Shown here: positions 15,194 through 52,693 of the stretch, one piece after another
Layout: each line of letters opens with the position of its first letter
Position numbering within the stretch: the stretch's first letter is position 1
NCBI GenBank assembly: GCA_030429765.1
Contig: JAUIER010000001.1
Coordinates: 65,014 to 129,013, forward strand
Length of the DNA stretch: 64,000 bases
DNA from: a bacterium
GTDB lineage: Bacteria > Omnitrophota > Gorgyraeia > Zapsychrales > Zapsychraceae
Reading direction: 5' to 3'
Notes under the pieces: model-generated
Told to the model about the DNA's origin: nothing
Seen by the model: only the letters and a program-made list of their open reading frames with translations
The model's database searches: none
Position numbers and translations under genes: made by a program

Positions 15194-15889
15194 ATGAATA
15201 TCACACTACTAAATATCCTAATATTCTTTGTTGGCTTTTCCGTGGTTTGGGCCGTGTTGGTGGCTGTTTTTTTTGCCAAGGAAATTCGCTGCACCAAGGA
15301 AAAAGATCCGGCCGCCAAGGGATATCTGGAGATTATTTTATTATACCCGGGGCTACACGCGCTGATCGCCCATCGGATGGCTCATGCCATCTGGAATTTT
15401 CGGATGCGATTTCTCGCGCGCTTTTTATCGCAAATATCACGTTTTATTACCGGCATCGAGATTCATCCCGGCGCCAGGATTGGAGACGGCTTGTTTATCG
15501 ATCATGGAATGGGCGTGGTGATTGGTGAAACCACGATCATCGGAAACAATGTGACACTTTTCCAAGGTGTAACACTCGGCGGAACAGGCAAGGAAACCGG
15601 CAAGCGGCATCCGACGCTGGGCAACAATGTTGTCGTCGGGACCGGGGCCAAGGTTTTGGGAAATATCACGATCGGGGACAATACCTATGTGGGGGCCAAC
15701 GCTGTGGTGCTTCGATCGGTGCCCGCGAATACCACGGTAGTGGGCGTGCCCGGGCATATCACCAAGAAAGACGGAAAGCGGGTGGATCCGATGGATCACG
15801 GCGGGGTATCTGACCCGGTCATGGTTCATATGAAGGATATGATCAAACGCATCAAGACCCTCGAAGACAGTCAAAAGCGAAAGTCTTAA
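15194..15889 (+). CDS. cysE: serine O-acetyltransferase
   Basis: Left-handed beta-helix hexapeptide repeats with the CysE-type motif IHPGARIGDGLFIDHGMGVVIGETTIIG. Confidence 0.8.
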   Translation: MNITLLNILIFFVGFSVVWAVLVAVFFAKEIRCTKEKDPAAKGYLEIILLYPGLHALIAHRMAHAIWNFRMRFLARFLSQISRFITGIEIHPGARIGDGLFIDHGMGVVIGETTIIGNNVTLFQGVTLGGTGKETGKRHPTLGNNVVVGTGAKVLGNITIGDNTYVGANAVVLRSVPANTTVVGVPGHITKKDGKRVDPMDHGGVSDPVMVHMKDMIKRIKTLEDSQKRKS

Positions 15890-45306: not shown

Positions 45307-45768
45307 ATGGGACAGGCAATTATCTCCAACAAGAAGGCGTTTCGGGATTTTGAGATCCTGGACAAGTGGGAATGCGGCATCGAGCTCAAGGGCTCGGAGG
45401 TCAAATCCATTCGTGCGGGCCATGTGAACTTCAAAGATACCTTTGCCCGGGTCGAAAAAGGGGAGATCCTGCTTTACAGCCTGCACATAGATCCCTACAA
45501 ACAGGCCAGTTACGAAAATGTGGATCCGGACCGTGTCCGCCGGCTCCTGCTGCACAAGCGTGAGGTCCGAAAGATCGATAACGAGGTCACCCTCAAAAAT
45601 TACGCCCTGATTCCAACCAAGCTCTACTACAACAAACGCGGATTCGTCAAGGTCGAACTGGCCATGGGCAAGGGCCGAAAATTCTACGATAAGCGTGAGG
45701 TGATCAAGAAGCGTCAGATCGCCCGCGATCTCAACCGGGCCATCCGGACCGGTTCCCGCCGCCGCTAG
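45307..45768 (+). CDS. smpB: SsrA-binding protein
   Basis: SmpB fold motifs (NKKAFRDFEILD...GIEL.GSEVKS) and a basic C-terminal tail. Located 3.3 kb upstream of ssrA. Confidence 0.9.
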   Translation: MGQAIISNKKAFRDFEILDKWECGIELKGSEVKSIRAGHVNFKDTFARVEKGEILLYSLHIDPYKQASYENVDPDRVRRLLLHKREVRKIDNEVTLKNYALIPTKLYYNKRGFVKVELAMGKGRKFYDKREVIKKRQIARDLNRAIRTGSRRR

Positions 45769-47979: not shown

Positions 47980-48388
47980 ACCTAAATTATAAACCTCCTG
48001 CAAGTATTTGCCATGAGTAGACATACGCATCCGGGTGGGTAGTTTTACCTATCCGTCTGGAGGCCGGATATTTAGCATTTGCCAAGTTCCAGAGCATCGA
48101 CTATACTTATAGACTGTTCTTTAAAAATTTGGGGGTGATCTGGTTCTGCTTCGTTTCCGACATTTTGAATTGGAGTTTTGAAATGTCGTTAACTTCGCAG
48201 GAACTAGTTCGAAGCAGAAATTCTTCGAAGCTCCTAGAGTATTTTCTGATCAAGCATAGAAGATTCTAAGCTTGATCATCCGTTCTTTAAAAATTTGGGG
48301 GTGATGTGGTTCTGCTTCGTTTCCGACATTTTGAATTGGAGTTTTGAAATGTCGACAACTTCGCAGGAACTAGTTCGAAGCAGAAATT

Positions 48389-48432
48389 CTTCGAAGCTCC
48401 CGGTTTTTTATATTGTGTAGCGAAGAAGATTA
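48389..48432 (+). repeat. 45-bp direct repeat flanking the GIY-YIG gene (left copy)
   Basis: CTTCGAAGCTCCCGGTTTTTTATATTGTGTAGCGAAGAAGATTAT. Near-identical right copy at 48796-48840. Confidence 0.7.
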
Positions 48433-48494
48433 TAGAGCTATCCTTAATCTATGCATATGCGCATAGCTCCAAAAGGTAGAGAGGAGAATGTGCC

Positions 48495-48752
48495 ATGCAG
48501 TATGTATACGTGTTGGTTAGCCAAGTAAATAAATCAAAAATCTATATTGGCAGAACTGAAGATCTAGATTCTCGCTTTAGACAGCACAATTCTGGTCAAG
48601 GCGATTATTCAAGGCGCTGGAAACCTTGGCAAATTGAGACCTATATTGCCTTTTCATCAGAATCATTGGCAGTCAAATTTGAAAAGTATCTCAAGGGTGG
48701 ATCGGGCTTTGCTTTTCTAAAGAAAAGATTTTTACCTGAGATTGATTCTTAA
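48495..48752 (+). CDS. free-standing GIY-YIG nuclease-domain protein (YhbQ/UPF0213-like, 85 aa)
   Basis: Motifs YVYVL...KIYIGRTEDLDSRFRQHNSG match the GIY-YIG catalytic core, including the conserved Arg. GAGGAG ribosome-binding site 8 nt upstream. Confidence 0.75.
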   Translation: MQYVYVLVSQVNKSKIYIGRTEDLDSRFRQHNSGQGDYSRRWKPWQIETYIAFSSESLAVKFEKYLKGGSGFAFLKKRFLPEIDS

Positions 48753-48795
48753 ATATATTGAAGTTTGCAATCCTTGTGCTCGAAGATTCAATCCT

Positions 48796-48840
48796 TCGAA
48801 GCTCCCGGGTTGTATTATTGTGTAGCGAAGAAGATTATTT
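48796..48840 (+). repeat. 45-bp direct repeat flanking the GIY-YIG gene (right copy)
   Basis: CTTCGAAGCTCCCGGGTTGTATTATTGTGTAGCGAAGAAGATTAT. Confidence 0.7.
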
Positions 48841-49023
48841 GTTCTTTAAAAATTTGGGGGTGATCTGGTTCTGCTTCGTTTCCGACATTTTGAATTGGAG
48901 TTTTGAAATGTCGACAACTTCGCAGGAACTAGTTCGAAGCAGAAATTCTTCGAAGCTCCTAGAGTATTTTCTGATCAAGCGTAGAAGATTTTAAGCTTGA
49001 TCATCCGTTCTTTTAAAATTTGG

Positions 49024-49682
49024 GGGTGATGTGGTTTCGACTTGAGATGTTTGAGTCTTAGGTGGCATGCCGAGGAAGTCTGGTTGGCCTCGTTAATCAT
49101 CCGGACAAACAATAAATGGTAACGATTCAACGTTAACATTCGCAGACTTTGAAAGAGAAACTGAGAATTCAGTGGCTCCTCAAGGTTTCGCACCTGTATT
49201 AGCTTAAGAATAAGCTAATCCCTTATACAAATCATGTCTGTGGATTTGTATAAGGACCTTTACAGACTAGCGCAGTTGAGGTCTAGGCGACTGTTGCGAA
49301 ATTTTTAGACTGGCCGTCGGTAATCCTGTGCATTGGAGTGCAGGCGGTAAGATTAATAAATGTACTAAGCATGTAGAGGCTTAAGGCCGGCTCGTTAAGG
49401 ACCGGGGTTCGATTCAAAGGAGTCGACTTTTGGAGTAATCCAGAATGCTAAACTTGGCTTACATCAAGGAAGCCCAATTCTCAAACCTTATCTTGCGAAG
49501 GGTAATCTTGAGGGGTGAAAGCCCTGCAGAGACTTCTCCGGAAGGAGAGATGAAAGGCTCTACCAATATTGGTAAATCTATGCCTTTCATAATACGCCAA
49601 GCTCCTCGACGAATGTTGAGGATGAAGAGATAGTCCATGCTGATCGGGTAACGATCAGATTAGTGTCCCCGCACCTCCACTT
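49024..49682 (+). ncRNA. ssrA: tmRNA (SsrA) gene interrupted by an intron-like insertion in the T-loop
   Basis: 5' end GGGGGUGAUGUGGUUUCGAC resembles the E. coli tmRNA 5' end. PK1 region UGCCGAGG...GGCCUCG is present. Tag frame ends ...APVLA with UAA-GAA-UAA. Near the 3' end is CUAAGCAUGUAG. The T-arm is CGGGGUUCGAU | insertion | UCCCCG, followed by the acceptor strand CACCUCC-A-C, which pairs with the 5' end including a G3:U pair. Confidence 0.85.
49416..49667 (+). other. candidate group I intron (about 252 nt) within the tmRNA T-loop
   Basis: The 5' exon ends in U. Intron GUCGA (49424-49428) pairs with exon UCGAU, giving a U:G wobble at the splice site (P1). The GGA immediately 5' of it pairs with exon 2 UCC (P10). 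There is a GACU...AGUC P7-like pairing with a UCUCC-GGAA-GGAGA hairpin between (P8-like), a CUGAUCG-GGUAA-CGAUCAG hairpin (P9-like) and a terminal G at 49667. No ORF lies inside. Confidence 0.65.
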
Positions 49683-49691
49683 TAAATTAAA

Positions 49692-49743
49692 GGCCTTGTA
49701 AATTGTTGTTTTATAATAATTTACAAGGCCTTTTGTTTTTTAA
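49692..49743 (+). terminator. intrinsic terminator of ssrA
   Basis: 15-bp hairpin AAGGCCTTGTAAATT...AATTTACAAGGCCTT followed by a T-rich run. Confidence 0.8.
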
Positions 49744-49755
49744 AATGTTTTAGTG

Positions 49756-49806
49756 CCCAAACAGTGCCCAAATCAATCCAAAACATCGGTAAACAAATCT
49801 AACACT
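49756..49806 (+). repeat. intergenic repeat R (GTGCC-N5-GGTGCC ... AAAACA.CGGTAAACAAA.CTAACA), copy 1
   Basis: Three roughly 50-bp copies with over 80% identity at 49756, 50818 and 52456, plus a short fourth copy at 52694. All are intergenic in the island downstream of ssrA. Confidence 0.7.
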
Positions 49807-49917: not shown

Positions 49918-50817
49918 TTGAAATTCGTTTTTGTATTGACGTTTCATAAAGATATTGAAATCTGCCAAAACCGTATCAGAATGCTGCGTAGGCACAATCC
50001 TGACATACCGATTTACGGGGTTTATGGAGGTGAGCCGGATGAAGAAGCGGCTTTTCGCAAGGCCTTAGAAGGGAGATTAGACGGCTATTATTATTTTGAT
50101 GAACCTAAGGATGGCATGTGGAAATGGTTTAATTTTGATCTTCTGGTGACGAAATGGTACACAGACATAGGGAAAGATATGGACTTTGATTCGGTAATTT
50201 GGGTGCAATGGGATCAGCTCGTATTAGCGCCTGTAAAAGAACTGTTTAAGAACATAAAAAAAGGTGAAATGTTCATCACTGGTTTGCGGCCAGCTCAGGA
50301 AGTTATGGATTGGTGGTGTTGGGTGTCGAAGGACGCAGAGCAGGCGCCACCTGGGCATGGATATGAAACCTATATGGACTTTCTAAAGCATCTTAAGGAA
50401 GAATATAATTACAGTGAAGAGCCGGTATTTTCTCAGCCTTTTATAAGTATTTTCCCACGCGAATTTTTAGATCCTTACAGCAAACTAGAGTGGCCTATCG
50501 GTGGATACGGTGAATATCGTATGCCCATGTATGCACAAGTTTTTGGGGTGCCGTTTTACCGGTCTCATCATTATGAAGTATGGTGGCCCGATGATCCCGA
50601 GCAAAGGAATCCATCGGATGAAGAGAGGGTACTAACAGCATGGCAGGGTCCACTTCCCCTAAAACGAATTATGGAATTGTCCGCCGGTGAGAACGGACAC
50701 AAATTGATTCATCCCTATAGTAGAATTTACCCTCTGAATGCACTTGATTGGCTGAGATTGCTCAGGGACAAATTCTTAAACCGAAGGTATAGTCAGCCGG
50801 ATTCGGAAGAAAAGTGA
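49918..50817 (+). CDS. hypothetical protein (Trp-rich, no recognised domain)
   Basis: TTG start with a GGGGA ribosome-binding site. 299 aa. First gene of the island. Confidence 0.45.
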   Translation: MKFVFVLTFHKDIEICQNRIRMLRRHNPDIPIYGVYGGEPDEEAAFRKALEGRLDGYYYFDEPKDGMWKWFNFDLLVTKWYTDIGKDMDFDSVIWVQWDQLVLAPVKELFKNIKKGEMFITGLRPAQEVMDWWCWVSKDAEQAPPGHGYETYMDFLKHLKEEYNYSEEPVFSQPFISIFPREFLDPYSKLEWPIGGYGEYRMPMYAQVFGVPFYRSHHYEVWWPDDPEQRNPSDEERVLTAWQGPLPLKRIMELSAGENGHKLIHPYSRIYPLNALDWLRLLRDKFLNRRYSQPDSEEK

Positions 50818-50870
50818 GTGCCCAAACGGTGCCTAACGAAAACCAAAACACCGGTAAACAAACCGAACAA
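50818..50870 (+). repeat. intergenic repeat R, copy 2
   Basis: GTGCCCAAACGGTGCCTAACGAAAACCAAAACACCGGTAAACAAACCGAACA, starting at the stop codon of the preceding gene. Confidence 0.7.
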
Positions 50871-52423: not shown

Positions 52424-52455
52424 AGGCACTTCACACATGTGAGGTGCCTTTTTTG
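52424..52455 (+). terminator. conserved terminator hairpin family, copy a (AGGCACTTCACA-CATG-TGAGGTGCCT plus T-run)
   Basis: GC-rich stem plus T6. The same GGCACTTC...GAGGTGCC stem recurs at 53584, 59144 and 60642. Confidence 0.7.
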
Positions 52456-52510
52456 GTGCCCAAACGGTGCCTAACGAAAACCAAAACAACGGTAAACAAA
52501 CCTAACAAAA
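52456..52510 (+). repeat. intergenic repeat R, copy 3
   Basis: GTGCCCAAACGGTGCCTAACGAAAACCAAAACAACGGTAAACAAACCTAACA, immediately after terminator copy a. Confidence 0.7.
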
Positions 52511-52693
52511 CCTAAACAACCGGACAGTTTTAAAAAGGTGTTTTCCGATGAGACTTGAAGCAATATATTGAAAATAAAGGGTTTATGTAAAATCGACTAA
52601 ACGTATCCCCGCACCTCCATAATTTAAATAAGGGTTTGTAAGTAACTGTCACACAGCTATTTGCAAACCCTTTTTTATTTTGGGATGCCGAGG

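Follow-up and report, generated by a model that had tools for sequence, protein, structure and literature searches.

Genes of transfer RNA (tRNA) and transfer-messenger RNA (tmRNA) are classic landing sites for mobile DNA; in the cases known, such DNA relies on integrases and on the gene's 3' half. A nuclease is found beside such genes in phages: the GIY-YIG endonuclease SegB, encoded next to tRNA genes, cuts their T-loop motif, and its activity yields tandem repeats of tRNA and segB joined by microhomology (PMC13096335). The present analysis concerns the tmRNA gene (ssrA) of an Omnitrophota bacterium, located in a stretch of 64,000 nucleotides that is hereafter called the window (assembly GCA_030429765.1, contig JAUIER010000001.1, positions 65,014–129,013 of the forward strand). 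Upstream of this ssrA the 5' end of the gene is repeated in a tandem array harboring a gene for an 85-residue GIY-YIG nuclease. The array is probably a tandem series of nuclease cassettes of a kind resident on tRNA and tmRNA genes, one of them complete (unit B with its open reading frame, ORF) and two devoid of the ORF (units A and C). Most likely the cassette is selfish and rides on the transcript of ssrA.

Other described systems share particular features with the locus. The islands and prophages residing at tRNA and tmRNA genes have in common with it that the inserted DNA is flanked by a directly repeated part of the RNA gene, that the gene remains intact and that repeated events give rise to tandem arrays (Williams 2002 and the Islander database, as cited in PMC11915505). 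Intron-form tmRNA genes, in which a group I intron interrupts the T-psi-C loop, number 883 in 21 phyla (PMC11915505); these correspond to the window ssrA gene itself and not to the repeats upstream of it, and the words "tandem", "pseudogene" and "Omnitroph" do not occur in the text of that paper. REPIN/RAYT systems resemble the array in that imperfect palindromic doublets, short and able to form hairpins, flank one small gene of the nuclease type. Literature searches of incomplete coverage found no description of the cassette, of its module or of 5' ssrA repeats, in agreement with the original prediction, made from the window sequence, that the arrangement had not been described.

The array (48116–49006, plus strand) is built on the 30-nt block GTTCTTT(A/T)AAAATTTGGGGGTGAT(C/G)TGGTT, which starts at 48116, 48282, 48841 and 49007. 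The sequence TTTGGGGGTGATSTGGTT occurs four times in the window versus 0 expected from shuffles. The block corresponds to ssrA positions −15 to +15, i.e., to a 15-nt transcribed leader followed by nucleotides 1–15 of tmRNA, with tmRNA +1 at 49022 and the native leader at 49007–49021. The upstream copies are identical to the ssrA copy at 28–29 of the 30 positions so that each unit is flanked by a directly repeated part of the target gene. In relatives devoid of a unit, e.g., in L001, the leader GTTCTTTAAAAATT natively precedes ssrA (here and below the L-numbered loci are homologues located in other assemblies). The distances between consecutive blocks are 166, 559 and 166 bp. The period is thus non-uniform, and units B and C are separated by the GIY-YIG ORF (48495–48752) and a partial module. 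The repeat proposed in the original prediction is therefore real and comprises four blocks, but its period is not an exact 166 bp throughout; two of the starts given there (48116 and 48282) are correct, and the other two (48843 and 49009) lie 2 nt too high. The self-comparison that had been suggested recovered the tandem units: Tandem Repeats Finder reported a 166-bp period at 48116–48439, and a repeat search of the window gave a 197-nt repeat in three copies and a 59-nt repeat in four.

Each upstream block continues into a module of two hairpins framed by boxes, the final TT of the block doubling as the first two bases of the module, so that in the window the module is joined to nucleotides 13–15 of the tmRNA 5' end. 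Unit A (48116–48281) is composed of the block 48116–48145, a module without ORF (48144–48264) and a 17-nt arm that completes a 15-bp palindrome (48247–48278). Unit B (48282–48433) consists of the block 48282–48311 and the complete module from Box1 to Box5 (48310–48430). Unit C (48841–49006) contains the 30-nt block and, like unit A, a module without ORF (48869–48989). All of these features lie on the plus strand. The two tail variants noticed earlier are present: variant 2, that of unit B, is formed by hairpin B and Box5, and variant 1 comprises the same region (its Box5 reads GC(A/G)TAGAAGAT) together with the 17 nt completing the 15-bp palindrome. Units A and C are identical at 162 of 166 positions (97.6%) and differ at four, and units B and C agree at 118 of their first 119 nt; the differences in sequence argue that the three units are distinct copies. 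On the 3' side of the ORF there is a partial module (Box3' to Box5, 48780–48838, plus strand; weak profile match at 48792–48835), which forms a 59-nt direct repeat with 48375–48433. This repeat of the Box3–Box5 region (50 of 59 positions identical, 85% by the repeat search) flanks the ORF and could provide a route to its loss. The three different right ends of the units all abut ssrA position −15. Every unit precedes a fresh −15/+15 copy, and the last copy runs on into the intact ssrA.

The module (121 nt in the window units, ~100–120 nt in the family) follows the order Box1 TTCTNCTTCG, hairpin A, Box2 CTTCGNAGGAA, Box3 GCGAAGNAGAA, Box4 TTCCTNCGAAGC, hairpin B and Box5 GCGAAGNAGAA, its right half being approximately the reverse complement of the left one. 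The 10-bp inverted repeat TTCTGCTTCG/CGAAGCAGAA reported previously is present, and from TTCTGCTTCG onward the window units align box for box to the module of the family (alignments A2 and A4, with shared invariant boxes). An nhmmer profile constructed without window sequences matched the three units with E-values of 5.3e-7, 6.1e-7 and 9.5e-6 and nothing else in the 64-kb window; a first profile, which included unit B, gave zero matches to 120 unrelated metagenome loci. Because the units are homologous to the cassette module, unit B and the ORF together make up a full cassette, of which units A and C are ORF-less copies. The 28-codon ORF originally pointed out in the units falls within the variable hairpin A; it is absent from the homologous modules, has a different C-terminus in unit B and matches no family, and we do not retain it as a gene. 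A placement of the module on the minus strand was rejected, as the profile scores higher on the plus strand and the box order fits there. The lower-scoring minus-strand matches arise because the module is palindromic. Together with L158, where the two hairpins are reverse complements of each other, they show the module to be a large imperfect palindrome. A metagenome scan with the pattern GGGTGAYN{0,6}TCTGCTTCG was discarded: the pattern was too loose and returned 120 chance matches with no unit-like locus among them.

Both hairpins were predicted by RNAalifold to share one design, the outer stem being (C)TNC/GNAG, the internal loop conserved and the inner stem variable. In alignment A4, 94.9% of the cells are paired (79.5% in shuffles), 34 are changed on both sides (10.8 in shuffles), and the covariation score amounts to 0.43, versus 0.15 in shuffles and no more than 0.12 with slid partner columns. 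The box position N is occupied by three pair types (G-C, A-U and U-A), its partner changing in step. The RNA fold z-scores of the units range from −3.6 to −4.75, the latter value belonging to unit A. As modeled, the structure of the module is conserved and covarying, and these data fit action at the level of RNA or of DNA alike. Its assignment to a known ribozyme or RNA family was rejected: a search of Rfam 15 (E ≤ 10) with window positions 48100–48500 and with L135 positions 1070–1300 gave no meaningful match except tRNA. Mimicry of tRNA or of its acceptor stem by the units was also considered, GGGTGATC being able to pair with GATCATCC and GGGG with CUCC. This idea was dropped because the segments in question were inherited with the boxes and palindromes of the family and because ARAGORN returned nothing.

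The heptamer GCGAAGC is found in several boxes, namely in window positions 48375–48433 and in the homologous boxes of L135, L136, L149 and L158. This heptamer is reported to form an unusually stable DNA mini-hairpin, and its presence might hint that the module acts as single-stranded DNA.

The nuclease gene (48495–48752) is placed on the plus strand, in the same orientation as ssrA, and is preceded by the ribosome-binding site GAGAGGAGAA; the original prediction had overlooked it, together with the group I intron of ssrA described below. Its 85-residue product matches Pfam PF01541 with an E-value of 4.1e-15 (56 bits at a cut-off of 22.6), and its match to TIGR01453 stays at 18 bits at a cut-off of 56. 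Tyr5, Tyr17, Gly19, Arg27, His31 and Glu63 are invariant among the ten members of alignment A3, and these residues presumably play the catalytic roles that the GIY-YIG fold gives to two tyrosines, an arginine, a histidine or tyrosine and a glutamate. Among the solved structures, the family profile is nearest to UPF0213 protein BH0048 (1zg2, 3e-10), followed by SLX1 (1e-6), and judged by these profile matches the nuclease belongs to the UPF0213/Slx1 branch of the GIY-YIG superfamily. The family comprises 2,133 proteins at E ≤ 1e-8. Those with a named source come from Omnitrophota and Elusimicrobia, and most of the listed members consist of 80–95 residues with the catalytic domain only. Viral contigs yielded only two distant GIY-YIG relatives, neither of them beside a tRNA gene nor with a full box module. 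Slx1 is a structure-specific nuclease, so a module adopting hairpin or cruciform form fits as a substrate of the enzyme and may serve as such.

In nine distinct loci a tRNA or tmRNA gene is followed, at a distance of 100–370 nt, by a co-oriented homologous ORF of 80–85 residues. In all nine the module constitutes the spacer between the RNA gene and the ORF and begins directly at the annotated 3' end of the former (distance 0 nt). The genes concerned are those of tmRNA (L001, L002 and L003), tRNA-Arg (L135), tRNA-His (L136 and L148/149), tRNA-Gly (L158), tRNA-Phe (L161) and tRNA-Glu (L163).

Fragments of RNA-gene ends are found within the cassettes of several loci. In L149 the tRNA-His gene is followed by the module, the ORF up to its stop codon, 15 nt copied from the 3' end of the tRNA (TCCCGTCAGCCACCC) and beginning at the last T-loop base, and an ORF-less module. 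Where L149 has a single cassette, L148 (positions 2021–2861) carries two in tandem with a period of 372 bp, each made up of the 15-nt tRNA-His 3' fragment, the module and the ORF. Eight k141 contigs from different samples (L150–L157), each 513 bp long, contain the ORF at shifting offsets, and in several of them the module recurs at a distance of 372 bp; these contigs are compatible with longer tandem arrays or with 372-bp circles. At the 5' side, L002 harbors one short unit between the promoter and ssrA, which reads leader, GGGGTGA, TTCTGCTTCG-loop-CGAAGCAGG, leader, ssrA, its hairpin being the same as in the window. In L135 (positions 860–1154) the 5' end of the tRNA-Arg(CCG) gene, TGCGCCCGT, occurs four times upstream of the gene, and two of the copies extend to TGTGCGCCCGTAGCT. 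The copy at 864–890 resembles an internally deleted tRNA, GCGCCCG-TCCTAAAGGA-CTGGCGC-CA, in which the acceptor strands surround a short hairpin; another copy is fused to a box-like hairpin, and the same tRNA gene bears a GIY-YIG cassette at its 3' side. Judged from these assemblies, tandem arrays with fragments of RNA-gene ends are a recurring trait of the family, and the window appears as the most developed example of the recurring 5'-end arrangement.

The occurrence of the cassettes is patchy. Comparison of related ssrA loci, as had been proposed, showed 5' units in the window and a single one in L002 and none in L001, L003 and L004; 3' cassettes are present in L001–L003 and absent from L004 and from the window ssrA. 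L134, a Logan contig of a close relative (a neighbouring protein is 91% identical), ends inside the 30-nt block at ...GGGGGTGATCTGGT (positions 1–20, read on the minus strand), as expected if the repeat branches there in the assembly graph. This suggests that a repeat or polymorphism exists at the ssrA 5' end of that relative too.

The likeness of the locus to SegB extends to the array itself, as the tandem units of the window also hold a nuclease gene and fragments of an RNA gene and the fragment in L149 begins in the T-loop. The systems differ in several respects. The proteins of the present family contain 80–85 residues, consist of the catalytic domain only and fall in the UPF0213/Slx1 branch; their loci are chromosomal (Omnitrophota, Elusimicrobia) and not phage-borne; they possess a conserved double-hairpin module with an exact 0-nt junction to the 3' end of the RNA gene; and in the window it is the 5' end of the gene that is duplicated, as 15-nt fragments rather than as whole genes. 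Enzymes of the Seg and I-TevI type carry one or more C-terminal DNA-binding domains and typically have about 200–250 residues, unlike the 85-residue product of the window ORF. The cassette thus cannot be assigned to this type, since it lacks an obvious DNA-binding domain, although it works like a free-standing homing-endonuclease gene, and its patchy presence at the same locus in related genomes is of the homing type. In contrast to the islands (PMC11915505), the cassette has no integrase and its units measure 166–560 bp. The window repeats the leader and nucleotides 1–15 instead of the 3' part of the gene, duplication of the 3' part being found in L148 and L149. REPIN/RAYT systems rely on an HUH/Y1 transposase, whereas the window protein is of the GIY-YIG type; the modules stand at ends of RNA genes and within the 64 kb only at ssrA, with none outside 48.1–49.0 kb.

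A sigma-70-like promoter, TTGCCA-N17-TATACT (48079–48107, plus strand, score 10/12), is probably that of ssrA. It is the only good plus-strand site of this kind ahead of the gene and lies 5' of the repeat and outside it. A promoter-like site was also sought within the block and within the units and none was found there; the location of the promoter inside the repeat was hence rejected, and the supposed triplication of the ssrA promoter does not hold. As the promoter-like site is outside the repeat, the 30-nt block represents the leader plus tmRNA nucleotides 1–15 and not a promoter. In L134 direct reading reveals a comparably situated site, TTGCCT-N17-TATAAT, ahead of the block. The stretch from the promoter to 49733 contains a single terminator-like site, an intrinsic terminator after ssrA (49689–49733, plus strand). 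In the proposed scheme the whole array would be transcribed from 48079–48107 as a long 5' leader, from which RNase P would free the mature tmRNA at 49022, and the nuclease gene would be expressed within the tmRNA leader just as the cassette elsewhere rides the 3' trailer. Read-through from the strong promoter of the RNA gene would be the simplest model of expression, because the cassette has the same orientation and lies inside the predicted transcription unit. For the decoy or alternative small RNAs put forward in the original prediction there is no support, and none for promoters of their own.

As for the origin of the array, the founding event would have been the placement of a cassette in the ssrA 5' region with duplication of the 30-nt block. 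It may have been caused by repair of a nuclease-triggered break with segmental amplification, as for SegB, or by att-like recombination. Two sub-models can be drawn. In the first, (a), the cassette would have been inserted at ssrA nucleotides 13–15, duplicating positions −15 to +15. In the second, (b), ssrA with a 3' cassette would have been duplicated in tandem, and the gene body would then have been deleted between the TT at +14/+15 and the TT of Box1. In either case later unequal crossing-over between the 30-nt blocks would produce the near-identical units A and C, and the ORF-less units would result from loss of the ORF between the 59-nt repeats together with crossing-over between the blocks. 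One option of the original prediction, that repeated integration or homing events had scarred the 5' end of ssrA, was broadly right: the units are copies of a nuclease cassette that looks mobile, each with a regenerated ssrA 5' end.

The gene downstream of the array, taken for a genuine tmRNA, matches Rfam RF00023 (49030–49416, 122 bits) and is an intron-form gene invisible to ARAGORN. That program found no tmRNA in the window because the T-loop is interrupted by a group I intron. The intron matches Rfam RF00028 (49403–49658, 50.9 bits at a gathering score of 50), the match overlapping that of tmRNA. It spans 252 nt (49414–49665, plus strand) and contains no ORF; its exact boundaries, with U49413 as the −1 base and G49665 as the terminal G, were placed where splicing would restore the T-arm. 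Exon 1 (49022–49413, plus strand) holds the tag reading frame (G)NDSTLTFADFERETENSVAPQGFAPVLA*, and exon 2 (49666–49679, plus strand; TCCCCGCACCTCCA) provides the 3' strands of the T-stem and of the acceptor stem as well as the discriminator. Predicted splicing of 49413 to 49666 gives CGGGG-TTCGATT-CCCCG followed by CACCTCCA, as characteristic of intron-form tmRNA, and in the joined exons the acceptor stem GGGGGTG/CACCTCC includes a G3-U pair. The intron is lacking in L001–L004. Its site lies before the last T-loop base, the same point at which the duplicated tRNA 3' fragment of L149 and a displaced ssrA fragment at 52606 start. The smpB gene (45307–45768) is situated 3.2 kb upstream of ssrA, and its product, with best matches of 61–71% identity, assigns the bacterium to Candidatus Omnitrophota. 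The tag reading frame (49117–49206, translated by hand) is unusually long, with 28 residues beyond the resume codon. Its start resembles the likewise hand-translated tag of L004 (..NDETLTFAS..), and the tags of L001 and L003 are shorter and end in ..ALV.

An exact 14-nt copy of ssrA exon 2 (TCCCCGCACCTCCA) is located at 52606–52619, 2.9 kb downstream of ssrA. Between it and the gene the sequence AGTGCCCAAAC(A/G)GTGCC(C/T)A followed by ..CGGTAAACAAAC occurs three times, at 49752–49770, 50817–50835 and 52455–52473. The layout resembles that of two or three small islands inserted in tandem at the 3' end of ssrA, and the fragment at 52606–52619 probably marks a classical example of such an island in the same window. 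Comparison of five ORFs of the 49.9–54.3 kb region with Pfam revealed no integrase domain; MORN repeats are present in one, a PEP-CTERM motif in another, which lies immediately 3' of the fragment, and the remaining three match nothing. In L004 (positions 15296–15448, ~1.9 kb downstream of its ssrA) a copy of the ssrA 3' end, CGATTCCCCGCACCTCCA, is followed by a stretch that resembles the box module, with no ORF and a weak profile match (E = 0.0028), and repeats of the GTGCCCA type, like those in the window, are found at the ends of this L004 island. The island seems to have been integrated between ssrA and its old 3' end with the module.

The fact that the same identity block bounds each unit and that three different right ends abut position −15 could also be explained by site-specific recombination. 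The units would then be miniature integrative elements flanked by att sites: a recombinase acting in trans would join the 30-nt core (ssrA −15 to +15) of circular cassettes to the chromosomal ssrA 5' end, and successive integrations would produce the array, as islands do at 3' ends. The duplicated fragments of L149 and L148 resemble the classical att duplication of a tRNA 3' end from the T-loop, the 513-bp k141 contigs are compatible with 372-bp circles, and the displaced ssrA 3' fragment (52606–52619) with the small repeats in between indicates recombination at ssrA in this lineage. Nevertheless, we regard this explanation as unlikely. No ORF of recombinase size is present in 48116–49006, which contains only the 85-residue GIY-YIG gene and short ORFs, and the five ORFs tested downstream gave no integrase match. 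Units of 166 bp are far below the known size of integrative elements, and the 0-nt junctions are formed at many different tRNA 3' ends with no common core sequence. It also counts against this explanation that, to our knowledge, the integrases targeting tRNA and tmRNA genes displace the 3' part of the gene and not the 5' one. Still less probable, in our estimation very much so, is an artefact in which a short-read assembler expanded a repeat wrongly or joined strain variants of the metagenome into a chimera. The metagenomic source, the 97.6% identity of units A and C, which is difficult for short reads, and the break of the L134 contig at the repeat would agree with it. Yet any assembly path needs at least three structurally different junctions, in which the promoter meets a unit, tail 1 meets unit B and tail 2' meets unit C, and four positions distinguish unit A from unit C; the differing copies and the three junctions argue against a simple assembly expansion. 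Arrangements of the same kind are furthermore present in the independent assemblies of L002, L135 and L148/L149.

The strong conservation and covariation of the two-hairpin structure raise the question of an RNA element beneficial to the host, that is, a structured leader or trailer controlling processing, stability or expression of tRNA and tmRNA precursors or of the nuclease mRNA, the 5' repeats being a selected regulatory leader or a source of small RNA. The units fold well, and the stem of hairpin A in the window includes U-G and G-U pairs that would be mismatches on the opposite strand. The cassette is always co-oriented with the RNA gene and lies inside its predicted transcript, and the short form is kept in L002, the SmpB of which is only 69% identical. 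We nonetheless consider a host-beneficial RNA rather improbable. The distribution among relatives is patchy, with no 5' unit in L001, L003 and L004, the copy number varies, and forms with and without the ORF coexist. Due to its palindromic symmetry the module matches the profile on both strands, which is typical of DNA-level elements; it has no Rfam match and no promoter-like site within a unit. Fragments of RNA-gene ends in the arrays are hard to account for by RNA function alone.

Some observations do not sit easily with the reading of the array as tandem nuclease-cassette copies. The link of the cassette to tRNA is not absolute, because L139–143 have the module and the ORF with no tRNA gene and L144–147 have the ORF with no module. 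The nuclease is a catalytic domain alone and shows no obvious DNA-binding domain. The junction at tmRNA nucleotides 13–15 is unlike the 3'-end junctions of the family, and no module is present 3' of the window ssrA, which leaves sub-model (b) with no direct remnant here. The insertion event and its boundaries are putative, co-transcription of the array and its release by RNase P are predictions from the layout of the region, and the copy number was derived from a metagenome assembly.

Tentatively, and with less confidence than is given to the cassette reading itself, we propose that these loci represent a distinct class of selfish elements. Such an element would combine a minimal Slx1/UPF0213-like GIY-YIG gene with the double-hairpin module and would colonize the ends of tRNA and tmRNA genes, normally at the 3' side and here and in two other loci at the 5' side, riding the transcript of the RNA gene. 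It would be amplified in tandem by nuclease-triggered repair that copies a fragment of the gene end and keeps the host gene intact, the module serving as the structure-specific substrate for recognition or cleavage.

Arrays of this kind together with the T-loop intron hide tmRNA genes from standard finders and break assemblies. Through this locus a large family (more than 2,100 proteins) comes to light, made up of very small nuclease cassettes in phyla that have been little studied; the cassettes adjoin the ends of tRNA and tmRNA genes to the exact nucleotide, and their tandem arrays carry fragments of the gene ends. If the nuclease does drive these rearrangements, the family would provide, on bacterial chromosomes, a counterpart to the amplification that SegB was recently shown to drive in phages, and a function would be assigned to the widespread and uncharacterised GIY-YIG proteins of the UPF0213 type.

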